From: Patescibacteria group bacterium
GTDB taxonomy: Bacteria; Patescibacteriota; Patescibacteriia; UBA1558; UBA10009
DNA length: 56,540 nt
Direction: 5' to 3'
Assembly: GCA_018817315.1 (NCBI GenBank)
Contig: JAHITV010000002.1
Location: 1-56,540 of the forward strand
Positions 13,296 to 42,993 of the stretch are shown piece after piece (within the stretch, counting starts at the first letter, position 1; each line of letters begins with the position of its first letter). The notes beneath the pieces are model-generated. The model worked only from the letters and a program-made list of their open reading frames with translations. It ran no database searches and was not told where the DNA came from. The position numbers and the translations under genes were made by a program.

Positions 13296-13767
13296 ATTAA
13301 GGTCGGTTGTTTGTCTTAAAATCACGAAGGATGATAGCTGGGCAGCTTGACAAATAACCGACCGGTTCTTTTCATTATTTTTAGTTAGCCGCATGCTCTT
13401 TTTTAGCAACCGGTCATTTGTCTTCAGAAAGGAAGGTCGTGTGGGTAATTTAGACTTATGACCGGTCTGCCCCTTTTATGATTTTGGTCAGCCGCACACT
13501 CTTTGACAATGAAGTTAAGAGGATATATTGTCCCTTCCGACTTTATAGTGCATGGCTGGCCACCTTTTTTGACCGGCGGCTGTTATTCTTTGAAACGCTT
13601 TACTTACTTGCTCGCTCTGACCAAGGAATACAGCCAAGCCGGTCAATCTTTTTTCGTTCTTCGCCCTCACATCTCCCACCATGCTCTGGATGATGGATTT
13701 ATACCACCTCCAGGCAGACACCCTGACGCTGATTGTTCCCCTGTGATCAGTATTGGGTGTTTTTTTA
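13296..13767 (+). ncRNA. structured non-coding RNA of unidentified class (three tandem hairpin modules)
   Basis: A G+C-elevated gap between two minus-strand genes, with only overlapping nonsense ORFs on both strands. Bounded by a promoter and a terminator. Long hairpins lie at 13301-13363, 13409-13466 and 13571-13644. A conserved tail YAGCCGCAYRCTCTTT occurs at 13385-13402 and 13487-13504. The 5' end is estimated from the -10 box. Confidence 0.5.
13718..13767 (+). terminator. intrinsic terminator ending the RNA locus
   Basis: ACACCC...CTGAT...ATCAG...GGGTGT hairpin (13718-13760) followed by a T-run at 13760-13766. Confidence 0.6.
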
Positions 13768-13784
13768 TTTTAAATTTTTATATA

Positions 13785-13809
13785 TAAAAAAGACGTTTAG
13801 CTTACGCCT
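13785..13809 (-). terminator. intrinsic terminator after atpC (end of the atp operon)
   Basis: Minus strand reads AGGCGT AAGCTAA ACGTCT followed by TTTTTT. Confidence 0.45.
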
Positions 13810-14355: not shown

Positions 14356-14703
14356 TTATTTATATTGTATTGTCTTCCAAAGCATTGCTCCAATTTCATC
14401 TGCTTGCTTGGCTAAAATTTTATAATTATTATCTTTGATATATCCTTCATCATGAGAAAAACTGATTAAATATTCTGATTCTTTTAATGAAGCATAACTT
14501 ATTCTCAAAAAATTCTTATTAACCCTAACACCTTGCCTGGCAAACCCTTCTATATAATTTAGTATTACCGACAAAGATGAGCGACGGAATTGACTCGTAA
14601 CTCCGTATAATTCATCTTTAGGAAAGGTCTTGGTTACTTTATATACATTATGAACATAAAGATTCATTTTTTTCTTGAGCTCGCCGTGAAATCGCTTTTC
14701 CAT
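14356..14703 (-). CDS. four-helix-bundle protein (family formerly called 23S rRNA intervening-sequence protein, PF05635-like)
   Basis: 115 aa from ATG 14703 (MEKRFHGELKKKMNLYVHNVYKVTKTFPKDELYGVTSQFRRSSLSVILNYIEGF...), with the size and motif pattern typical of that family. The upstream part of track ORF 14356..14817 runs through a repeat array and was trimmed. Confidence 0.75.
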   Translation of the reverse strand: MEKRFHGELKKKMNLYVHNVYKVTKTFPKDELYGVTSQFRRSSLSVILNYIEGFARQGVRVNKNFLRISYASLKESEYLISFSHDEGYIKDNNYKILAKQADEIGAMLWKTIQYK

Positions 14704-14726
14704 GTTATTTTGATTAATGATAAATG

Positions 14727-14761
14727 TCGTATATCGTGATTCGTTATTCGTATATCGTATC
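14727..14761. repeat. heptamer array (tcgtata, tcgtgat, tcgttat, tcgtata, tcgtatc)
   Basis: Five exact-period-7 units directly upstream of the four-helix-bundle gene. Confidence 0.6.
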
Positions 14762-14855
14762 ATGTTCTCAATTTGTGGGCTAACATCCCCTGGATTGCCG
14801 AAGTTGGAAGCGAACAAGGAATTTGGGCGGAGCTAGTAAATAAATATTTTATAAC

Positions 14856-18375: not shown

Positions 18376-18396
18376 GTTTTAAAAAATTAAATTATT

Positions 18397-18431
18397 AATT
18401 ACTGATTACCGATTACTTGTTACTGATTACT
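18397..18431. repeat. heptamer array (aattact, gattacc, gattact, tgttact, gattact)
   Basis: Period-7 units in the atpA-atpG spacer. The last unit overlaps the atpA stop codon. Confidence 0.6.
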
Positions 18432-20893: not shown

Positions 20894-20997
20894 GTATCAG
20901 TAATTAGTAATCGGTAATCAGTAACTAGTAATCAGAGAAAAATCCCCCCAATTACCAATTACCGATTACTAATTACTAGTTACTCAATTATCAATTA
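20894..20997. repeat. two inverted heptamer arrays containing a perfect 20-bp inverted repeat
   Basis: Left array is six units taatYRg (20894-20935). Right array is seven units Yaattac/cgattac (20949-20997). AGTAATTAGTAATCGGTAAT (20899-20918) is exactly complementary to ATTACCGATTACTAATTACT (20958-20977). Confidence 0.65.
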
Positions 20998-22712: not shown

Positions 22713-22747
22713 GATTACTGATTACCGATTACCAGTTATTGATACCT
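22713..22747. repeat. heptamer array (gattact, gattacc, gattacc, agttatt, gatacct)
   Basis: Period-7 units just downstream of the rmuC stop codon (22755). Preceded by cccc, as at 1197-1200. Confidence 0.6.
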
Positions 22748-32017: not shown

Positions 32018-33433
32018 TTAATTTAACTTATTAATAAAATAATCCATAATTTCGGCAATGGCGATTCTTTCCTGTTTCATGGTGTCGCGATCGCGTACTG
32101 TTACTTTTTTATCTTCCAAGGAATCAAAATCAACAGTCACGCAATAGGGAGTGCCGATTTCATCCTGACGGCGGTAACGACGGCCAATTGCTTGAGTTGA
32201 ATCATAATGACACATATATTGCTGGCTGAGTTTTGTGTAAATCTCTTGACTGACCTTTTCCAAATTTTCTTTTTTGGACAAAGGCAGAACCGCGATTTTA
32301 ACCGGCGCCAGACGTTTATCTAATTTTAAAACAACTTCCATTTCTTTCGTGCTTTTTGTAGTAGTAGTTCTGCCTCCTTCAATCTCTGTATAAGCATCAA
32401 CTAAAAAAGCCAAAAGAGAACGGTCAATACCGCCGGAAGTTTCTATAATATGGGGCAAATATTCTTTTTTTGTTTCTTCATCTAAAACTTTTAAGTCTTT
32501 GCCTGAATACTGCTGATGACGACTTAAGTCAAAATCTCCGCGGTTATGTATGCCTTCCAGTTCGCTCTGGTCAAAAGGAAAATTATATTCTATATCCCAT
32601 GCTACTTTGGCATAATGAGCCAATTCATTTTTTTGATGTTCTCGGTATTTTAAATTTTTCCTGTTCAAGCCCAGATTTATATACCACTCTAATCTTTGCT
32701 TTTTCCAATACTCAAAATATTTAGCCGCCTCTTTGGGATGAATAAAATACTGCATTTCCATCTGTTCAAATTCTCTGGTGCGGAAAATAAAATTACCCGG
32801 TGTTATTTCATTACGAAAAGCTTTGCCGATTTGGGCAATACCAAAAGGAATTTTTTTATTAGTTGTCAGTCTGATGCTTTCAAAATTAACATAAATGCCT
32901 TGGGCTGTTTCTGGCCGTAAATAAATCTGCGCAGATTTATCCTCTAAAACTCCCATAAAAGTTTTAAACATTAAATTAAAATTTCTCACTTTTGTTAATT
33001 CTCCGCCACACTCCGGACATTTATTATCATCTTTTTTAAGAGAAGTAGCAGGTTGAAATTCTGGCTTTATACTTTTGGTTTCCAAAAGATGATCAGCACG
33101 AAAACGTTTTTTACAGAACTTGCAATCTACCAAAGGATCAGTAAACCCTTCTAAATGACCGGAAGCTTCCCATATTTTAGGATGCATTAAAATTGCCGAA
33201 TCTAAACCTACAATTTCATCTCTTTGTTGAACCATTTCCTTCCACCATTCCTTTTTAATATTATTTTTAAGTTCCACACCTAAAGGACCATAATCATAAG
33301 AAGAACTTAATCCTCCATAAATTTCCGAAGAAGGAAAAATAAAACCACGGCGTTTACACAAAGAAACTATCTTTTCCATCTTATTATTTTCTGACTGTGA
33401 AGATGGCTGCTTTTTTTTACCTTTTAAAGACAT
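32018..33433 (-). CDS. glyQS: glycine--tRNA ligase (dimeric class II type)
   Basis: 471 aa with RPETAQGIYVNF and FRNEITPGNFIFRTREFEQME motifs and a C-terminal anticodon-binding domain. Confidence 0.93.
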   Translation of the reverse strand: MSLKGKKKQPSSQSENNKMEKIVSLCKRRGFIFPSSEIYGGLSSSYDYGPLGVELKNNIKKEWWKEMVQQRDEIVGLDSAILMHPKIWEASGHLEGFTDPLVDCKFCKKRFRADHLLETKSIKPEFQPATSLKKDDNKCPECGGELTKVRNFNLMFKTFMGVLEDKSAQIYLRPETAQGIYVNFESIRLTTNKKIPFGIAQIGKAFRNEITPGNFIFRTREFEQMEMQYFIHPKEAAKYFEYWKKQRLEWYINLGLNRKNLKYREHQKNELAHYAKVAWDIEYNFPFDQSELEGIHNRGDFDLSRHQQYSGKDLKVLDEETKKEYLPHIIETSGGIDRSLLAFLVDAYTEIEGGRTTTTKSTKEMEVVLKLDKRLAPVKIAVLPLSKKENLEKVSQEIYTKLSQQYMCHYDSTQAIGRRYRRQDEIGTPYCVTVDFDSLEDKKVTVRDRDTMKQERIAIAEIMDYFINKLN

Positions 33434-33477
33434 AATCCTTGATTTTTAAGTTGGTTATTTTATCAGTAACTTTATTT

Positions 33478-33506
33478 ATTATAATAAAATTAACTAAAAA
33501 TTACAA
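33478..33506 (-). promoter_or_regulatory. candidate glyQS promoter
   Basis: Minus strand reads TTGTAA (33506-33501), a 17-nt spacer, then TATAAT (33483-33478). Confidence 0.45.
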
Positions 33507-33521
33507 ATTCTATTTTTTGAC

Positions 33522-33556
33522 ACTTCGGCCCTTCGCTCTTCGGCTACCTCGACCTT
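33522..33556. repeat. GC-rich heptamer-phased array (acttcgg, cccttcg, ctcttcg, gctacct, cgacctt)
   Basis: TTCG recurs with period 7 at the left edge of the high-G+C island. An 8-bp hairpin GTCGCTTC/GAAGCGAC follows at 33571-33598. Confidence 0.45.
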
Positions 33557-33715
33557 TCAATAAATTCAAAGTCGCTTCAAGAAAAGTCGAGAAGCGACAA
33601 GCTCGGAGAGGGCAAACTCAGAGCTTAGGGCTCAGTGTCAACATTGCCTCACACCGAAAGTGCTCAGCACGAGGTGAGTAAGCCCCGATGCTTGCCATCG
33701 GAGTTACCGAATGGG

Positions 33716-33744
33716 TTGACAAATTACCCATAATTATTTATTCT
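33716..33744 (+). promoter_or_regulatory. sigma70-type promoter, island unit 1
   Basis: TTGACA (33716-33721), a 17-nt spacer, then TATTCT (33739-33744). Confidence 0.5.
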
Positions 33745-33784
33745 AATATGAATGGGTTCATTATAGCTAGGAGGAGATTTAGCC

Positions 33785-34162
33785 ATGACTCAAAGTGATT
33801 CTACCCAAGCTTTACCAGCGCCAGATGGAACGGGAAAAACGCGAAAAGCAAGGCAAAAAATTATTAATATGCTGGCTAAAACAATTTGTGATAAGTTGTT
33901 AACAGGCGGTACTGGCAGTGATGTTCTGCATTTTATTGAAAAAATTTTGGAATATGTAAAAAGCTTCCCGCCCCCGCTCCTGCCATCATTAAGCGCTTGG
34001 GAACAACAAGAAACTCAAAAGGGTCCTACTTCGTCACCTAAATACTTTTATATAATAATGGTGACAAATGGATTTGCTGAAAAAGATATTAAGATGTTTG
34101 TCAGACTTGTCAGACTTCATACCACACTACTTATGAAAAAGCGAGCAACGCTGGGTACTTAA
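33785..34162 (+). CDS. hypothetical protein (125 aa)
   Basis: ATG preceded by AGGAGGAG (33769-33776) and followed by a terminator hairpin. No recognisable domain. Confidence 0.45.
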   Translation: MTQSDSTQALPAPDGTGKTRKARQKIINMLAKTICDKLLTGGTGSDVLHFIEKILEYVKSFPPPLLPSLSAWEQQETQKGPTSSPKYFYIIMVTNGFAEKDIKMFVRLVRLHTTLLMKKRATLGT

Positions 34163-34163
34163 T

Positions 34164-34207
34164 CCACCTATATAAATCTGAATACATTAATGTATAGGTG
34201 GATTTTG
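34164..34207 (+). terminator. intrinsic terminator, island unit 1
   Basis: CCACCTATA (34164-34172) pairs with TATAGGTGG (34193-34201), followed by ATTTT. Confidence 0.55.
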
Positions 34208-34268
34208 ACTTTGGATCAAGATTTGATTTAGTTTTATTGTCAACCCAGTCCCGAGCTTGTCGAGGGGG

Positions 34269-34297
34269 TTGACAAAACATTAAATTTAATTTATTAT
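34269..34297 (+). promoter_or_regulatory. sigma70-type promoter, island unit 2
   Basis: TTGACA (34269-34274), a 17-nt spacer, then TATTAT (34292-34297). The -35 box lies in the 3' arm of the inverted repeat TTGTCAACCC (34237-34246) / GGGTTGACAA (34266-34275). Confidence 0.6.
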
Positions 34298-34384
34298 ATG
34301 ACATTATCCAATCTGATCTTTTCACTTGTAAATAAAAAATTTGAGATAAAACAAGATTAACGGAAAAAAGCAGGAGATTTGAAA

Positions 34385-35443
34385 ATGAATGTACTCCTTG
34401 TAGCAAACATGGTGGCTTCAAAACAAGCGTTTGAAATGCTCAAAAAAGAGTTAGAAAAACGCGGCCATCAAGTCTTCCCGTTCCTTAGTGCAGGAAAGCT
34501 GGAGGAAACTCTAGTTACAGATATCGCCCCGATAATAGCGAACAGTAATCTTATTGTACTTGGGATGTCATCTGACGAAAACTTGGCCCAACAAGAGCTA
34601 GGTATCGCAAAAATTGCCAAAGAAAATAATACACCTTACTGTTTCTATGGCGATACTTACAGCTCATGCGCACGTCCGCATCTCCAGCAAGCTCTTGAAA
34701 AAGCCGGCACCCTCTTTGTTATCAACGGAGAGGAAGCTGAAAAGGCAAGTATGGTCTTCCCGCAGCTCAAGGTGGTGGTATCCGGAAATCCCACCTGGGA
34801 AGAATTCTGCTTCCCTAAATTCACTCCGAAACTAATCCGGCATTCACTCTCCATTGCCGAGGACGAAATAGTTATTCTGGTTCCTTTTGGGAAGATGTTT
34901 GATATCAACCGACTGCACCTCAACGGAGTAATCCAAGCCGTTGATCTCGCCGGTGGACAAACACCTAATGGCAAAAAAATTCGGATTATTGCCAGTTCTC
35001 ATCCAGGCGATCCTGTTGAACCAGAAAAATATTGCGGATTAGTGGAACCTCATCAGTTTACCAGGATTATACCCAGCGCCTTGGCACCGACGTTGGGCTT
35101 ACTGCCTGGTGTAGACCTGGTAATAGGATCTGCTTCAACCGTAGGCGTTGCCGCCGCACATCAAGGTATTTCAGTAATTGATTTTCTTACTAAAAAAGCA
35201 CTGGATCGCCTTGAGCAAAGCACCGGCCAAAGAACTTGGGCGCCTTGCAACCTGGGAGCTTCCTGCATGGTTACTGAATCAGAATCAGAAAGAGAATTAA
35301 TGAAAGCAATCCTGGCCCTCCTTAAGGATCCTACGTCAATGCGCGAGCGGCAGAAAGCTGTTTATCCTGCCCCAACTAAGATCGGTGCAGCCGTCGAAAT
35401 TATGGCTGACACCATTAAACAGCTCGCTCAAGAAATCACCTAA
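34385..35443 (+). CDS. uncharacterised two-Rossmann-lobe (GT-B glycosyltransferase/epimerase-like) protein, paralog A
   Basis: Start moved to ATG 34385, 8 nt after AGGAG (track start is TTG 34379). An alternating beta-alpha pattern and the motifs VVSGNPTWEEF and IGSASTVGVAAAHQGISVI resemble GT-B/2-epimerase-like folds. Function unassigned. Confidence 0.6.
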   Translation: MNVLLVANMVASKQAFEMLKKELEKRGHQVFPFLSAGKLEETLVTDIAPIIANSNLIVLGMSSDENLAQQELGIAKIAKENNTPYCFYGDTYSSCARPHLQQALEKAGTLFVINGEEAEKASMVFPQLKVVVSGNPTWEEFCFPKFTPKLIRHSLSIAEDEIVILVPFGKMFDINRLHLNGVIQAVDLAGGQTPNGKKIRIIASSHPGDPVEPEKYCGLVEPHQFTRIIPSALAPTLGLLPGVDLVIGSASTVGVAAAHQGISVIDFLTKKALDRLEQSTGQRTWAPCNLGASCMVTESESERELMKAILALLKDPTSMRERQKAVYPAPTKIGAAVEIMADTIKQLAQEIT

Positions 35444-35473
35444 CTATCACTTCATTCACAAAATCTCAACATA

Positions 35474-35504
35474 GGGATTGGCAACGTGCCGATCCCTTTT
35501 TTTT
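35474..35504 (+). terminator. intrinsic terminator, island unit 2
   Basis: GGGATTGGCA-ACG-TGCCGATCCC (10-bp stem including one G-U pair) followed by T8. Confidence 0.7.
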
Positions 35505-35532
35505 ATTGTCAAGCCCTTTGTGAAAGGCTTGC

Positions 35533-35561
35533 TTGACAAAACATTAAATTTGATTTATGAT
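35533..35561 (+). promoter_or_regulatory. sigma70-type promoter, island unit 3
   Basis: TTGACA (35533-35538), a 17-nt spacer, then TATGAT (35556-35561). The -35 through spacer (TTGACAAAACATTAAATTTRATT) is nearly identical to unit 2. An inverted TTGTCAAGC lies upstream at 35506-35514. Confidence 0.6.
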
Positions 35562-35644
35562 GCAGTATAATTTAATTGCTCATTTTGTTATAAATTCCGA
35601 AGAATTCTGACAATAAACCAAACCGACGAAAGCAGAGGTGACAC

Positions 35645-36655
35645 ATGAACTTATTATTTGCAGGTTTTGATTTGGCAGCAGCCAAAAACCTAATCATGGT
35701 GGCTCAAGCTGCCCAAATAAAAAACCATCAGGTAACATTCATCGGTAACCAATTAATGTCCAGATTCATTATTGGCGACAAACCTGATGCTATTATCACT
35801 GGTCTAGCTTCGTTTAAAACCGAAAACGAACTAATCTTCGCTACCATGGCCAGAGATTCCAAGATTCCTCACTTGGTCATTGCCGAAACACATTTTTCCT
35901 GGGCCCGTCCCAAAGCCGAGGGTCTGATGACGCACGCGATTTGCGCTGTAGCTTCGCCAGCCGAAATCGCGGAAGCTAAAAAATGGGGTTACAGCGATGC
36001 CGTCTATCTAGGTGGTCCTCCGCTCTGGCAAGCTTTTAGAAGATTAAAGCCAGCCCAACTGGTCATTCCAGAAGATACCAAAGTCATCCTGGTCGGTGGC
36101 ATCAAAGACGCCAGACTGACCGACATGATGCTGGCCGAGGTAGCCAAATCCATAAAGGCTTTGGCTGCTACTCATGGCATCAAGTTGCAGCTGATCTTTC
36201 GGCCGCATCCCAATGAACCAGCGGAAACTTATAACGAAGCTCGACGGAAAGGAATACTGGAAGGAGTTGAACCTTTACCTTCTGATGCTCCGACAGACAA
36301 CTTGATTTCAGAGGTAGACGTTTCAATCTTTACTTCCGGAGCCATGGGAACGATTATAGCCCCGATCCTGCGAAAACCATCTATCTACTACGAAGATGAC
36401 TGGGTCTGCAAGCGCATGGTTAGTCAGATCGGTCGCAAGGACTGGCTACCAGCTGAAGAAGGAGCTTTGATCAAAGCCACGCCCGAGACTTTGACTGCTG
36501 AGCTGGAATGGATGCTCAAGCTCAAAGAAAAAGAATTATCCGAACACCACGAACAATTATCTGCTTGCCAAGCCGGCGTCTATCCTGATCCTAAGCCCCT
36601 ATCTTCACCTGAGGAAGAGATCCTTTTCTTCATCGAGAAAACTTGGCAAAACTGA
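35645..36655 (+). CDS. uncharacterised two-Rossmann-lobe (GT-B-like) protein, paralog B
   Basis: 336 aa with ATG 6 nt after GAGG. Same length class and domain order as paralog A (for example LGGPPLWQAF versus VSGNPTWEEF). Distant paralogy judged by eye. Confidence 0.6.
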   Translation: MNLLFAGFDLAAAKNLIMVAQAAQIKNHQVTFIGNQLMSRFIIGDKPDAIITGLASFKTENELIFATMARDSKIPHLVIAETHFSWARPKAEGLMTHAICAVASPAEIAEAKKWGYSDAVYLGGPPLWQAFRRLKPAQLVIPEDTKVILVGGIKDARLTDMMLAEVAKSIKALAATHGIKLQLIFRPHPNEPAETYNEARRKGILEGVEPLPSDAPTDNLISEVDVSIFTSGAMGTIIAPILRKPSIYYEDDWVCKRMVSQIGRKDWLPAEEGALIKATPETLTAELEWMLKLKEKELSEHHEQLSACQAGVYPDPKPLSSPEEEILFFIEKTWQN

Positions 36656-36687
36656 TCATTCGGAATCCATTACGAAATCTCACCATA

Positions 36688-36717
36688 GGGATTGGCAACA
36701 TGCCGATCCCTTTTTTT
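36688..36717 (+). terminator. intrinsic terminator, island unit 3
   Basis: GGGATTGGCA-ACA-TGCCGATCCC followed by T7. Differs from the unit 2 terminator by a single base. Confidence 0.7.
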
Positions 36718-36719
36718 AT

Positions 36720-36748
36720 TTGACATAATAAATTTCACCTTCTATAAT
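36720..36748 (+). promoter_or_regulatory. sigma70-type promoter, island unit 4
   Basis: TTGACA (36720-36725), a 17-nt spacer, then TATAAT (36743-36748). Confidence 0.6.
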
Positions 36749-36794
36749 AACTTATTAATTCAAATCTGATCATTTCAAAAAAGAAAGGGGAAAC

Positions 36795-37724
36795 ATGAAA
36801 GCCCTTTGTTCTGTACTCATCTTTCTGTTCTTGTCCATTAGCGGTTTTACTCAAGTGACAGAAATGAATTGCGGCGATACTGCCACAGGGAATTTTGGTC
36901 AATCCGGAAATGAATATCTTTTTGGCTTTGAGAATCATTATCAAAGCCAATTGAACATCATACTTATCTGTGAGCAATCACATCTTGATCTCTTTTCCCG
37001 GCTACCTGAGTTACCTTGGCCATCAGACACTTGTTGGCTTGCCGAAGGATACGGGCAAATTGATATTGCCTCTCTTCCCAAAGGCACCTATTATATCCGG
37101 GCAACAGGAATTGGTCCATTTCAAATGCGACTTTATTGTGAGGAGTATCAACTTCCTGTTGAGCTAACCGTTTTTGAAGCAACCGCAGGCAATGGACAAG
37201 TGACACTACACTGGCAAACAGCCAGTGAGAAGGACAATGACTGCTTTGAATTGCAACGCCAAACAGAAAACAGCCAATGGATAACCATTGCAGAAATTCC
37301 CGGCAGCGGCAACAGCCAAACAACTATCAACTATGAGTATATTGATCAGGCAGTTGTTAATGGTGTGACCTACGTTTATTGTCTACTGTCACGCGACTTA
37401 AACGGCACTATCCATGATTACGGACAAACAGCAGAAGCTACACCTCTAACGCCGATACCAACAGAGTATGCGCTTCACCAAAACTTCCCTAACCCCTTTA
37501 ATCCGCAAACAAGTATTTCGTATGCCTTGACGGAAACGGGGTTCGTGACTTTAAAAGTTTACAATGTCATGGGTCAGGAAGTGGCAAATTTGGTAGATGG
37601 CCAAATGGAAAGTGGCCATCATACAACGACGTTTGACGGCAAAAATCTGCCAGCCGGCATTTACTTTTACACACTGAAAGTGGCTAATTTCACCAGCACC
37701 AAAAAAATGCTGCTGGTAAAATAA
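36795..37724 (+). CDS. secreted protein with a T9SS type A C-terminal sorting domain
   Basis: 309 aa with signal peptide MKALCSVLIFLFLSISGFTQ. A middle module (LTVFEATAGNGQVTLHWQTASEKDNDCFELQR) is typical of FCB-group cell-surface proteins. The C-terminus LHQNFPNPFNPQTSISYAL...GIYFYTLKV...KKMLLVK matches the Por/T9SS CTD pattern. Confidence 0.75.
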   Translation: MKALCSVLIFLFLSISGFTQVTEMNCGDTATGNFGQSGNEYLFGFENHYQSQLNIILICEQSHLDLFSRLPELPWPSDTCWLAEGYGQIDIASLPKGTYYIRATGIGPFQMRLYCEEYQLPVELTVFEATAGNGQVTLHWQTASEKDNDCFELQRQTENSQWITIAEIPGSGNSQTTINYEYIDQAVVNGVTYVYCLLSRDLNGTIHDYGQTAEATPLTPIPTEYALHQNFPNPFNPQTSISYALTETGFVTLKVYNVMGQEVANLVDGQMESGHHTTTFDGKNLPAGIYFYTLKVANFTSTKKMLLVK

Positions 37725-37755
37725 AAAAGGGTAGATCAAAAGACTCCCAAACAAA

Positions 37756-37789
37756 AGCCCGATTGTGGTTAATCGGGCTTCTTTATTTT
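37756..37789 (+). terminator. intrinsic terminator (bidirectional; also closes glmS on the minus strand)
   Basis: AGCCCGATT-GTGGTT-AATCGGGCT followed by TCTTTATTTT. On the other side it is preceded by an A-rich run. Confidence 0.6.
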
Positions 37790-37795
37790 ATAAAA

Positions 37796-39595
37796 CTATT
37801 CTACTGTCACAGATTTTGCCAAATTTCTTGGCTTGTCCATATCAATACCCTTGATATCAGCTATATAATAAGAAAGGAGTTGCAAAGGAATTACATTAAT
37901 TACCGGTGATAATTCATTAATTATCTGCGGCACTTTAATTAAATAATCAGCAAGTTCTTTTATTTCTTTATTATCTTCATTGACCAAAGCAATGATTTTG
38001 CCTTTTCTGGCTTTAACCTCCTGCATATTACTAATTATTTTGGCAGATAAATTATTTTTAGTCGCTACAAATAACACCGGCATTTGCTCATCTATTAAAG
38101 CAATGGGGCCATGTTTGATTTCTGCCGCTGGATAACCTTCAGCATGAATATAAGAAATTTCTTTAAGTTTTAAAGCACCTTCCAAAGCCACTGGAAAATT
38201 AATTCCCCTGCCCAGATAAAGGAAATTTTTCACTGCTGTAAATTCTTTAGCAATTTTTTGCACCTCTTTATCAGTTTTTAAAACTTCTTTTACTTTTTGA
38301 GGCAATTCCTCTAATTCTCTTAATAACTCCTGATCCAGTTCCTGCCCTTTTTTCTGTCTTATATATAAAGCAAAAATTAATAAAGCAACTACTTGGGAAG
38401 TAAACGCTTTAGTACTGGCGACGCCGATTTCCGGCCCAGCATGCAAATAAATACCAGAATCAACTTCCCGGCTAATGGTAGAACCAACTACATTAATAAT
38501 CCCCAAAGTTTTAGCTTGCTTTTCTTTGGCTCCTCTTAAAGCCGCTAAAGTATCGGCTGTTTCTCCTGATTGAGAAATAACAATTACTAAATCATCCTTA
38601 CCAATAACAGGATTTCTATACCTGAATTCCGAAGCATAATCTACTTCCACTGGAATTTGGGTTAATTCTTCAATAAAATATTTGCCAATCAAAGCTGAAT
38701 GCCAGCTGGTGCCACAGGCAGTGATAATAATTCTCTTTATTGAATCTACCCTAAAATCCACAGTTATTTTTATCTTTCTATCCTTGATTCTGCCTCTGAT
38801 CGTATCAGTAATGCTCTGCGGCTGTTCAAAAATTTCCTTAAGCATAAAATGCTTAAAGCCCTTTTTCTCCATTTGCTCCACTGTCCACTTTATTTCTTCT
38901 ATCTTTTTATTGACGAATTCGCCGTCTATATTTTTGATAATATATTTATCTTTAGTGATGGTTGCTATTTCCTCATCCTGTAAATGAACTACTTTTTTGG
39001 TATGTTCTAAAAGAGCAGCTGAATCCGAAGCAACAAACATCTCTCCTTCACCCACGCCAATAATCAAAGATGAACCTTTACGGGCAACGATGAGTTTTTC
39101 CTCTTTTTTATGCATTACCACTAAACCATAAGATCCTTCCACTAACTTTAAAGTTTTAATAACTGCTTTTTCTAAATTTTGCTCATAAAACTTTTCCACC
39201 AAATGAGCAAAAATTTCTGAATCAGTTTGGGAGGACAACTGATGGCCTTCTTTTTCCAATAAATTTTTTAAAGCATGATAATTTTCAATAATGCCGTTAT
39301 GAACAATAGCAATATTTTTAGAACAATCAAAATGAGGATGGGCATTATTTTCGTTAGGTTCTCCATGGGTTGCCCAACGTGTATGAGCAATACCAATCAT
39401 GCCTTTTAATTCTTTTAACTCATCCAGTTTTTCCAACTCAAAAATTCTACCTCTTTTTTTAAAAACTTTTAATCCTTCTTTGGTTTTCACACAAATCCCG
39501 GCACTGTCATAACCGCGGTATTCCAATTTTTTTAAACCCTCAATTAAAATAGAAGTAGAATCTTTATTGCCAATATAACCGATGATTCCGCACAT
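37796..39595 (-). CDS. glmS: glutamine--fructose-6-phosphate aminotransferase
   Basis: 599 aa with N-terminal MCGIIGY (Ntn Cys), two SIS domains and a C-terminal KSVTVE end. Confidence 0.95.
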   Translation of the reverse strand: MCGIIGYIGNKDSTSILIEGLKKLEYRGYDSAGICVKTKEGLKVFKKRGRIFELEKLDELKELKGMIGIAHTRWATHGEPNENNAHPHFDCSKNIAIVHNGIIENYHALKNLLEKEGHQLSSQTDSEIFAHLVEKFYEQNLEKAVIKTLKLVEGSYGLVVMHKKEEKLIVARKGSSLIIGVGEGEMFVASDSAALLEHTKKVVHLQDEEIATITKDKYIIKNIDGEFVNKKIEEIKWTVEQMEKKGFKHFMLKEIFEQPQSITDTIRGRIKDRKIKITVDFRVDSIKRIIITACGTSWHSALIGKYFIEELTQIPVEVDYASEFRYRNPVIGKDDLVIVISQSGETADTLAALRGAKEKQAKTLGIINVVGSTISREVDSGIYLHAGPEIGVASTKAFTSQVVALLIFALYIRQKKGQELDQELLRELEELPQKVKEVLKTDKEVQKIAKEFTAVKNFLYLGRGINFPVALEGALKLKEISYIHAEGYPAAEIKHGPIALIDEQMPVLFVATKNNLSAKIISNMQEVKARKGKIIALVNEDNKEIKELADYLIKVPQIINELSPVINVIPLQLLSYYIADIKGIDMDKPRNLAKSVTVE

Positions 39596-39724
39596 AAATT
39601 ATATTTTAGCAGATTTGACATAAAAAAACATCCTTTAGAAAGGATTTGACATAATATCCATAATATAATTAAATAAGCATTGATTGAACATTCACAACAT
39701 AACACCTTAAAGAAAGGGTATGTC

Positions 39725-40330
39725 ATGCTTAATAATTCCAGATTAAGGAACAACACAGCAAACATTTTAACTATGACGCGCGTTGTTCTTTTACCCCTTA
39801 TTATACCCACTTTTTATTGGAGTATATGGGATATTTTCACCATGCGCTGCATAGCATTTGTGCTGATGATGATTGCTGAATGCACTGACATGCTAGATGG
39901 ACACATTGCCAGAAAACTTAAACAAGAATCTAATCTCGGGAAATTACTTGACCCTCTTGCAGACTCGATTTACCGTAGTAGCATGTTTATCGTGTTTGTT
40001 GGACTAGGATACATGCCTTTTTGGTTTCTCTATGTCCTTGTTCCCCGTGATATCACTGTGGCCTATGTACGTACATTATGTTCTCTACGAGGCGAAGTTG
40101 TATCTGCAAGGAAAAGCGGAGTAATTAAGGCATTTTTCCAAGGTGGAGCAATGCTCGGAGTGATGATACTTGACCTTATACGCTTCTGGCCAGGAGCAGA
40201 AAGTACAAGTACAATATTTGACACACTTATTCTCCTTTTATTTGCCGCTGCTGCCCTGTACACTCTCTACTCATGGTATGACTATCTTGTTGGTTCATCC
40301 AAAACATGGGTAAAGCTGATACCGCATTAA
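39725..40330 (+). CDS. CDP-alcohol phosphatidyltransferase family protein (PgsA-like)
   Basis: DMLDGHIARKLKQESNLGKLLDPLADS matches the DG(x2)AR(x8)G(x3)D(x3)D signature. Start set to ATG 39725 (track start is TTG 39680). Plus strand, with intermediate G+C. Confidence 0.75.
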   Translation: MLNNSRLRNNTANILTMTRVVLLPLIIPTFYWSIWDIFTMRCIAFVLMMIAECTDMLDGHIARKLKQESNLGKLLDPLADSIYRSSMFIVFVGLGYMPFWFLYVLVPRDITVAYVRTLCSLRGEVVSARKSGVIKAFFQGGAMLGVMILDLIRFWPGAESTSTIFDTLILLLFAAAALYTLYSWYDYLVGSSKTWVKLIPH

Positions 40331-42766: not shown

Positions 42767-42929
42767 TAACAGAAGGTATATTCTAATATCCCTGCAGCGA
42801 CAGTTTTATTATTCTAAAACCAACAACATTACCACTTCTCGCCCCGCGAAGTCCCGAATGTAAATGAGGGACGAAGAGGGGTCAACCTCGCCCCGAGCTT
42901 GCCGAGGAGCGGACCCAGCGACCTTTATC

Positions 42930-42963
42930 CAAAACAACAAAGCCACTCTTTTTTTGAGAGTGG
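42930..42963 (-). terminator. hairpin terminator after the aldolase gene
   Basis: CCACTCT (42943-42949) pairs with AGAGTGG (42957-42963). U-rich tracts follow on both strands. Confidence 0.45.
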
Positions 42964-42993
42964 TTTTGTTATAAAAATTTCTAAATGAATTTA

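Follow-up and report, generated by a model that had tools for sequence, protein, structure and literature searches.

A small island without mobility genes, with glycan-enzyme-like and secreted-protein genes of probable horizontal origin, between glyQS and glmS in a Parcubacteria-like chromosome

In this work, a stretch of 56,540 nucleotides (the window) from a MEGAHIT metagenome assembly (contig name k141_...) was analysed. A plus-strand block of about 4.3 kb with four genes (P1 to P4) lies between the minus-strand genes glyQS (32018-33433) and glmS (37796-39595). Elsewhere in the window, only two isolated ORFs (13509-13787 and 39680-40330) lie on the plus strand, so the block is indeed the sole run of plus-strand genes, as the first-pass annotation of this DNA had stated. 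The backbone is a housekeeping contig. The best relative of its GlmS (69% identical) is found in a Candidatus Parcubacteria genome (L010), in which the CDP-OH_P_transf-glmS neighbourhood is also kept, and the host chromosome appears to be Parcubacteria-like (Candidate Phyla Radiation, CPR; also called Patescibacteria). The features of the block are as follows.

33505-33715, minus strand: structured non-coding spacer, 51.7% G+C, between the glyQS and P1 promoters
33716-33744, plus strand: P1 promoter, TTGACA-17-TATTCT, 10/12 match; 26/38 resemblance to the P2 promoter
33785-34162, plus strand: P1, 125-aa orphan protein; SD AGGAGG, host-like codon usage
34161-34204, plus strand: P1 terminator hairpin, then a U-rich tail; -17.4 kcal/mol, z -4.1
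34236-34275, plus strand: inverted repeat TTGTCAACCC...GGGTTGACAA with the P2 -35 box in its 3' arm; fold z -3.4
34269-34297, plus strand: P2 promoter, TTGACA-17-TATTAT, 27/29 identical to the P3 promoter
34385-35443, plus strand: P2, 352-aa predicted GT-B-fold enzyme (AF2 model, Foldseek, HMMER)
35458-35511, plus strand: P2 terminator module, hairpin 35473-35497 and U-run; 48/54 identical to the P3 module
35507-35541, plus strand: inverted repeat TTGTCAAGC...GCTTGACAA with the P3 -35 box in its 3' arm; fold z -3.6
35533-35561, plus strand: P3 promoter, TTGACA-17-TATGAT (sigma-70 scan, repeat search)
35645-36655, plus strand: P3, 336-aa paralogue of P2 (BLASTP, 24% identity, E = 1e-14)
36672-36725, plus strand: P3 terminator module, hairpin 36687-36711; adjoins the P4 -35 box
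36720-36748, plus strand: P4 promoter, TTGACA-17-TATAAT, perfect consensus (12/12)
36795-37724, plus strand: P4, 309-aa secreted protein with a hydrophobic N-terminal leader and a C-terminal T9SS type A sorting domain
37755-37780, both strands: bidirectional terminator hairpin of P4 (plus) and glmS (minus); z -4.6 and -5.1

The four promoters, each proposed as a -35/-10 pair with a 17-nt spacer, were recovered as the four top-scoring plus-strand sigma-70 matches within 31-41 kb, with scores of 12/12 for P4, 11/12 for both P2 and P3, and 10/12 for P1. The distance from the end of the -10 box to the start codon is 40-87 nt across the four genes, P1 having 40 nt before its ATG. A hairpin-plus-U terminator had also been assigned to every gene; a terminator scan recovers three of them, and all four hairpins fold better than their shuffles (z -4.1 to -5.7). 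Each gene thus has its own sigma-70 match and terminator hairpin, and the description as four self-contained promoter-gene-terminator units stands. The bidirectional hairpin marks the right edge of the island. Besides the terminator hairpins of 11-14 bp, the repeat scan found only the inverted repeats that straddle promoters. The repeat before P2 surrounds a 29-nt G+C-rich motif (34239-34267), which recurs 8.6 kb away in a backbone spacer (42881-42909), with a chance expectation of 0. The coding DNA of P2 and P3 is just 41% identical, yet their promoter cores match at 27/29 and their terminator modules at 48/54 positions.

The left edge, previously described as GC-rich and full of hairpins, has both properties: it beats its shuffles on the minus strand (z -4.7, -80.1 kcal/mol) and on the plus strand (z -3.2), and it contains the 12-mer CCGAGCTTGTCG in minus orientation (33595-33606). 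A known RNA family (T-box or other leader) was rejected for this spacer, since Rfam covariance models gave no match across the whole window at gathering score, and no match in 33300-34400 at E<=1. The same-population contig L097 was its only relative among the fetched loci.

P1, annotated before as an unknown protein of 125 aa, is an orphan with no match in Pfam, NCBIfam, PHROGs, PADLOC, PDB sequences, or phage and viral collections. Its AF2 model (single-sequence) is all-helical and uninformative (pLDDT 52). The paralogy of P2 and P3 and their Rossmann/GT-B-like character were confirmed by BLASTP and by the GT-B fold in the predicted structure of P2. In the AF2 model of P2 (pLDDT 95.9, pTM 0.92), a cleft lies between two Rossmann-like alpha/beta domains. 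With this model, Foldseek found 191 matches in the PDB (E<=1e-3), with MshA and UDP-GlcNAc 2-epimerases at the top, and TM values of 0.6-0.67 were obtained on superposition with UDP-GlcNAc 2-epimerase (Epimerase_2; 1f6d, 3ot5), CapG (7ya2), and the GT4 enzymes MshA/BshA (3c4q, 3mbo). The P2/P3 family comprises 430 cluster representatives in a full HMMER scan. Its profile matches CapG at 2.8e-6, and the stretches SGNPxWE and HPGD align with TGSPMTE and THPRS of CapG. Unlike these GT-B enzymes, P2 and P3 match no Pfam family at gathering score and reach no NCBIfam threshold (P3 reaches 15 of the 125 bits required by TIGR04396), and hhalign gave no significant match with one NeuC-type Epimerase_2 protein. 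Pfam Epimerase_2 itself is matched weakly by 9 of 66 family members (E<=0.01). In the 66-member alignment, H206 and P136 are invariant and D90 and G134-N135 nearly so, while E117, E139, and S133 are invariant among the eight closest relatives of P2; some of these conserved residues may correspond to the Asp/Glu/Glu/His set of the epimerases. In two other genomes (L005 and L090), a surface-glycan cluster of Epimerase_2 / CTP_transf_3 / NeuB / Wzy_C / Bac_transf genes contains the family gene, which stands immediately after NeuB. It is most likely that P2 and P3 are GT-B-fold enzymes of nucleotide-sugar type (transferase or 2-epimerase-like) that act on envelope glycans; the role in glycan modification is suggested by the fold and by the gene neighbourhood in other genomes. 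Contigs with family members mostly have a gene set typical of CPR, and most matches carry no taxon label. The sole close homologue of P3 (P0002, 65%) lies in an unrelated genomic context (L004) as a single gene of 47.5% G+C against 34%, with a GC3 z of 3.7 and its own promoter and terminator.

P4 had been called a secreted protein with a T9SS sorting domain, and the sorting domain (residues about 231-306) indeed exceeds both curated cut-offs: 47.4 bits for PF18962 (Por_Secre_tail; cut-off 27) and 50 bits for TIGR04183 (cut-off 23). With this domain, its hydrophobic leader, and 40-60% identity in the stretch before the sorting domain, P4 resembles the T9SS type A cargo of Bacteroidota, Ignavibacteria, and Calditrichota. 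It differs from such cargo in its Parcubacteria-like backbone and in its N-terminal third, which has almost no homologues. The 757 homologues of P4 cover its C-terminal 60-77% and, where named, are T9SS-sorting-domain proteins of Ignavibacteriales, Calditrichaeota, or Bacteroidota; the contigs of two close relatives that were looked up have 49-56% G+C. No T9SS components were found among the annotated ORFs of the window, which is one contig of the genome, and neither an outer membrane nor a T9SS is known from CPR bacteria. P4 would be exported by Sec, and its beta-sandwich 'T9SS' tail, inherited from a Fibrobacteres-Chlorobi-Bacteroidetes (FCB) donor, would probably have no sorting role in a Parcubacteria-like host.

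By comparing the composition of the block with the rest of the window, the reported contrast in G+C was reproduced, although its size (45-50% against about 30%) had been overstated: the island has 43.3% G+C and the rest 34.3% (z about 4.4 against same-size windows). The highest same-size backbone window reaches 38.2%, and the peak inside P2 and P3 is 51% in 300-nt windows. The strand-symmetric tetranucleotide distance of the island (z = 6.9) is the largest of any 4-kb stretch in the window. The GC3 values of P2 (0.425), P3 (0.475), and P4 (0.410) each exceed those of all 45 backbone ORFs (0.277±0.055, maximum 0.397). On the other hand, P1 has a host-like GC3 of 0.294, and the spacers of the island are host-like in composition as well. 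Of the comparisons that had been called for, codon usage sets P2-P4 but not P1 apart from the backbone, and k-mers set the island as a whole apart; the block is not uniformly foreign.

Because the codon usage and k-mer composition of P2-P4 deviate, and because P4 has FCB relatives in a Parcubacteria-like backbone, we consider it fairly probable that the block is a small island without mobility genes in which at least P2-P4, a cargo of putative glycan enzymes and a secreted protein, were horizontally acquired. The earlier proposal of a horizontally acquired surface or glycan module is thus retained for these three genes and not for P1 and the spacers. Against transfer counts that the closest known donors are just 41-65% identical.

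It is rather unlikely that the block is instead native and vertically inherited, its composition resulting from an Ala/Pro/Thr-rich make-up together with selection of C-ending codons in strongly expressed genes. Such an origin would agree with the consensus promoters and strong SD sequences, with the presence of the family in contigs of CPR-typical gene content, and with the higher G+C of the P2/P3 family relative to its neighbours, seen in all genomes examined and due to codon positions 1 and 2. Within the window, only pyrimidine-ending codons show the GC3 excess: it is nearly all T-to-C, with purine-ending codons unchanged, which counts against a simple donor of higher G+C. The C-ending share of two-fold codons, 0.37-0.56 in the island against 0.18±0.07 in the backbone, in itself favours transfer, though similarly high fractions occur in the short atpE (0.46) and in the native plus-strand CDP-OH_P_transf gene (0.43). 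Furthermore, P1 and the spacers are host-like, and the 29-nt motif is common to island and backbone spacers, so the block may be old, partly native, or rebuilt in place. However, a high C-ending fraction is not shared by the genes for the large ATP synthase subunits in the window. In four other genomes, P2/P3 family members and the genes around them have equal C-ending fractions, which means that the family as such does not carry the shift, and P4, which is unrelated to this family and has its relatives in the FCB group, shows the same shift. The tetranucleotide deviation likewise argues against a native origin.

A further explanation, which we regard as improbable, is that the units are exchangeable expression cassettes, in which recombination after DNA uptake would use the conserved promoter and terminator modules as short homology arms, and whole coding sequences would be swapped or added. 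The divergence of the P2 and P3 coding DNA between nearly identical modules would fit such an exchange, but a simpler explanation is that the neighbouring paralogous units have undergone concerted evolution or gene conversion, and the modules occur twice each in the 56 kb and in no other fetched locus. A TTGTCAA...TTGACAA inverted repeat at the -35 box also precedes the P3 homologue of L004 in its different neighbourhood, but is missing before the family genes in L092 and L094. In L004, L007, and L094, the family gene forms a monocistronic unit with a promoter and a terminator of its own, and the member in L092 has its own promoter with no terminator detected downstream. The closest P2 relative stands alone on contigs of 1.36-1.39 kb in three assemblies, bounded by repeated GGGAATGACA motifs, although short contigs are usual in metagenomes. 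The general claim, that single GT-B family genes and unrelated adjacent cargo travel as promoter-gene-terminator cassettes in CPR bacteria, is just as improbable; if true, it would mean a recombinase-free cassette system with conserved promoter and terminator modules as homology arms and natural DNA uptake.

An assembly chimera, with a DNA fragment of another organism joined into a Parcubacteria contig, is very improbable, because, despite the metagenomic source with MEGAHIT assembly, the abrupt composition change at either end, and second-assembler contigs that end at 33582 and near 35128-35140, so that the left junction is spanned by the window contig alone, the segment P2'-P3-P4-glmS with the right junction is reproduced without a single difference in Logan contigs (100% identical; from a single sequencing run, whose reads may be those of the window's own assembly), the terminator of P4 doubles as that of glmS, the 29-nt motif recurs in the backbone, P1 and the spacers have backbone composition, and the L004 homologue of P3 is, in a separate assembly, likewise a single gene of high G+C.

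For the acquisition of P2-P4, the preferred reading, no vehicle is apparent in the window. The Pfam-annotated ORFs include no integrase or transposase and there is no tRNA or tmRNA gene in the 56 kb; flanking direct repeats amount to short matches of 78-88% identity that are likely due to chance, and the earlier remark that no mobility genes or flanking repeats are visible agrees with this. The suggested search for empty glyQS-glmS sites yielded neither such a site nor an island-free close relative among the fetched loci, because the nearest relatives (GlmS 69% in L010, GlyRS 70% in L099) keep glyQS and glmS apart. The glyQS-M16 linkage is kept in 10 loci, in none of which glmS lies upstream of glyQS. 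We infer that at least P2, P3, and P4 came from genomes with a higher G+C, and since no recombinase is present, DNA uptake with illegitimate or short-homology recombination would be the most likely mechanism. Since contigs with a gene content typical of CPR are the usual setting of the P2/P3 family, there may be two sources, another CPR bacterium for P2/P3 and an FCB bacterium for P4. The island would now be expressed as four monocistronic units with sigma-70-type promoters, strong ribosome-binding sites, and intrinsic terminators.

In Patescibacteria, genomic islands are common and genes are often gained by horizontal transfer; most donors are themselves Patescibacteria, with an over-representation of Bacteroidota per genome (PMC12455944). 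The block is an ordinary further example of such islands: it is a deviant multi-gene block in a streamlined CPR-type chromosome, and its probable CPR and FCB (Bacteroidota-like) donors match the reported donor spectrum. It differs from the islands described there in being just 4.3 kb long, in having no recombinase or phage genes, and in that each gene has its own consensus promoter and terminator while three of the four genes deviate. The block also resembles integron cassettes in its row of short single-gene units in one orientation, with unrelated cargo and no internal mobility gene. Integron cassettes, however, are normally promoterless and end in attC beside intI, and an integron array was rejected on account of the own promoters, no integrase in the 56 kb, and nothing attC-like as judged by eye. 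A parallel case to the block is the P3 homologue in L004, which is likewise a lone high-G+C gene in an unrelated neighbourhood.

Four plus-strand genes (P1 to P4) were found between glyQS and glmS, and they form the island considered here:

33785-34162, plus strand: P1, 125 aa, orphan protein
34385-35443, plus strand: P2, 352 aa, paralogue of P3
35645-36655, plus strand: P3, 336 aa, paralogue of P2
36795-37724, plus strand: P4, 309 aa, secreted protein with a T9SS sorting domain

The four promoter sites named in the first-pass annotation proved to be the top four plus-strand sigma-70 matches in the 31-41 kb region. Their scores were 12/12, 11/12, 11/12, and 10/12, with a spacer of 17 nt in each, and the distance from the end of the -10 box to the start codon was 40-87 nt. 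The terminator hairpin proposed for each gene was recovered in all four cases (fold z -4.1 to -5.7). On the minus strand, the P4 hairpin (37755-37780) folds just as well, and it therefore also terminates glmS.

The G+C content is 43.3% in the island and 34.3% elsewhere in the window. Since equal-size backbone windows never exceed 38.2%, this contrast is real, although it is smaller than the 45-50% against 30% that had been claimed. The strand-symmetric tetranucleotide distance of the island (z = 6.9) is the maximum of the window. Moreover, the third-position G+C (GC3) of P2, P3, and P4 (0.425, 0.475, and 0.410, respectively) lies above that of the backbone (0.277±0.055, maximum 0.397). P1 (GC3 0.294) and the spacers (30-35% G+C) are host-like. 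The GC3 excess of the island genes is nearly all T-to-C: the proportion of C-ending two-fold codons is 0.37-0.56 in the island genes vs. 0.18±0.07 in the backbone, and the G-ending fraction is unaltered. Selection for expression is a conceivable cause of this codon shift, as C-ending codons are likewise frequent in the native plus-strand CDP-OH_P_transf gene and in the short atpE; however, their fraction is not high in the large ATP synthase subunits. A C-ending preference of the whole P2/P3 family was rejected because, in four other genomes, members do not differ from the adjacent genes in their C-ending fraction. Strand inversion was rejected because the four-fold sites of the island genes agree with the backbone pattern neither directly nor when complemented.

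The window corresponds to contig k141_1662812 of ENA assembly ERZ27247128. Two Logan contigs of run SRR6514274, both 100% identical to the window, cover 33582-35140 and 35128-39707. They come from a second assembler and from a single run, possibly the same reads, and were not accepted as independent support. The right junction is reproduced by this second assembler, possibly from the same reads, and the left junction is crossed by the window contig alone. The Logan breaks lie inside the left-edge element (33582) and inside P2 (35128-35140, an overlap of only 13 nt), and may be due to low depth or strain variation. A G+C-rich motif of 29 nt in the P1-P2 spacer (34239-34267) recurs in a backbone spacer (42881-42909), with 0 chance matches expected. 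This shared motif, the terminator common to P4 and glmS, and the host-like spacers argue strongly against the island being an assembly chimera.

The backbone contains 45 ORFs, nearly all on the minus strand, with housekeeping functions (gyrB, pheST, an AddA-like helicase-nuclease, the atp operon, several tRNA synthetases, clpB, tgt, and recO). Its GlmS shares 69% identity with the GlmS encoded by a 'Candidatus Parcubacteria bacterium' genome, with the runners-up at ~55%, and CDP-OH_P_transf adjoins glmS in that genome too. From this one marker and the gene content, the host is treated as a probable Parcubacteria-like bacterium within the Candidate Phyla Radiation (CPR, or Patescibacteria). A 135-aa 23S_rRNA_IVP/bAvd-like protein adjoins the atp operon (14356-14763, minus strand). 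Such four-helix bundles are the usual companions of rRNA intervening sequences or diversity-generating retroelements, and no reverse transcriptase was present among the annotated ORFs of the window.

The T9SS sorting domain attributed to P4 is of type A and scored above the curated cut-offs. Over its C-terminal 60-77%, this protein has hundreds of relatives at 40-60% identity, and the named ones belong to Ignavibacteriales, Calditrichaeota or Bacteroidota; two of the closest, which were looked up, lie on contigs at 49-56% G+C. P3 has only one close homologue (65% identity), a lone gene that has a promoter and a terminator to itself and is set among unrelated neighbours on another low-G+C contig, from which it also stands out in composition (47.5 vs. 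34% G+C; GC3 z = 3.7). P1 is an orphan with no match in any library tried, and its structure prediction was uninformative (pLDDT 52). The composition, the phyletic pattern of P4, and the parallel case of the P3 homologue support the view that the island would have been acquired by transfer. The adjacency of glyQS and glmS was absent in relatives found with GlmS (reference genomes) or GlyRS (metagenomes), all of them distant (≤70% identical), and the linkage of glyQS with an M16 gene was conserved in the relatives examined. No empty site was shown because the nearest relatives are too distant and do not have glyQS next to glmS. An origin from phage or plasmid was rejected: P1 and P2 had no matches in phage records, nor P2 in plasmid records, P1, P2, and P3 were unmatched in IMG/VR contigs, and P1 to P4 were unmatched in PHROGs and PADLOC. 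A search of a viral structure library returned generic GT-B glycosyltransferases only. Searches for an integrase, a transposase, a tRNA gene, and flanking repeats were all negative. We hypothesize that the block was inserted by DNA uptake followed by illegitimate or short-homology recombination. For 125 Patescibacteria genomes, a published survey reports genomic islands and transferred genes in the hundreds, with donors mostly from other Patescibacteria and with Bacteroidota over-represented per genome (PMC12455944). The present block fits this published picture. The first-pass reading of a horizontally acquired surface or glycan-modification module largely holds, its observation being confirmed and its G+C contrast reduced. 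The island is ordinary, small, and recombinase-free, of a kind already known as common in Patescibacteria. It would be one clean small example of how these streamlined bacteria still gain genes, here surface-related ones and partly from FCB-group bacteria, within a general picture that is already documented.

P2 and P3 are paralogues (24% identity, E = 1e-14), and no family was found for either in Pfam or NCBIfam. Word-index searches returned only 2 proteins with P3 as the query and 5 with the family profile; the family became visible through a full HMMER scan (E≤1e-3), whose 430 cluster representatives are almost all 330-390 aa in length. At the 50% identity level, the family numbers at least 430 clusters. 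No conserved stretch of 7-10 residues was seen in the family alignments. The members sit in contigs with CPR-typical gene content, the taxonomic spread being judged from neighbourhood content only. The predicted structure of P2 (pLDDT 95.9) has a GT-B fold, and its top PDB matches were MshA and many UDP-GlcNAc 2-epimerases (TM 0.6-0.67). Furthermore, the family profile matched CapG (2.8e-6), and a weak Pfam Epimerase_2 match was obtained for 9 of 66 members; hhalign of the profile against one NeuC-type epimerase gave no significant match. In two other genomes (loci L005 and L090), a family gene lies directly 3' of the sugar-synthesis gene NeuB, in clusters with Epimerase_2, CTP_transf_3, Wzy_C, a flippase, and Bac_transf. 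Considering the modelled fold, the epimerase and CapG matches, and the NeuB neighbourhood, we may reasonably infer a role for P2 and P3 in envelope glycan synthesis or modification. The NeuB-type clusters also hold conserved proteins of 351 aa and ~450 aa without a Pfam assignment (L005 686-1741 and 2507-3868; L090 2023-3369). Outside such clusters, the family gene is solitary with its own promoter, and in loci L004, L007, and L094 with its own terminator too. The closest relative of P2 (P0004, 41% identity; gene at 62% G+C) is the sole gene, with a promoter and a terminator to itself, on near-identical contigs of 1.36-1.39 kb from three different assemblies (L007, L008, and L009). L007, the one contig read, has three GGGAATGACA-type motif copies at its 5' end and inverted copies at its 3' end, an arrangement that would fit a multi-copy repeat on either side of the gene. 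This well-populated GT-B family without a Pfam model is a by-product that may be of more use than the island itself.

The same may apply to a second by-product, the near-identical regulatory modules around these ancient paralogues, which hint at concerted evolution or cassette-like exchange. The coding sequences of P2 and P3 share 41% nucleotide and 25% amino-acid identity; their promoter cores are identical at 27 of 29 positions, spacer included, and their terminator modules at 48 of 54. An inverted repeat, TTGTCAA...TTGACAA, spans the -35 boxes of P2 and P3, with a looser version at P1. It also precedes the P3 homologue in L004; the L092 and L094 members of the family lack it. The simple explanation of these modules is gene conversion between adjacent units or a common regulator site. 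The more novel reading, that they are the short homology arms of exchangeable cassettes, is quite improbable.

The stretch bordering the island on the left (33505-33715; 51.7% G+C) shows significant structure, with the stronger signal on the minus strand (z -4.7). No Rfam family matched it, by which a T-box or other known RNA was ruled out, and none of the loci fetched contains a related sequence. In a relative with 66% identity, the motif GGGTGGAACCAC lies upstream of glyQS and has a terminator after it (L100 960-1140). By eye this resembles a T-box leader, a likeness that Rfam did not bear out (no report at E≤0.01), and the glyQS of the window is without a T-box-like leader of this type. Another G+C-rich structured element lies between two minus-strand genes (42790-42980, plus strand), reaching 66% G+C in 80 nt (fold z -4.1) and ending in a strong hairpin-plus-U terminator. 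It matched no Rfam family above threshold, has the 29-nt motif GTCAACCNNGNCCCGAGCTTGYCGAGGNG in common with the island spacer at 34239-34267, and is possibly a small RNA or a REP-like repeat. Several backbone spacers (1195-1225, 18391-18431, 20896-20997, and 22713-22738) are filled by arrays of a 7-nt unit (GTAATYR/ATTACYR), which occur in none of the island spacers; a 12-mer probe of them gave 16 matches vs. 5 expected. At 20.9 kb, two opposed arrays form a long inverted repeat. The closest glyQS relative also has the motif, in the interval from clpB to glyQS (L099 940-1000).
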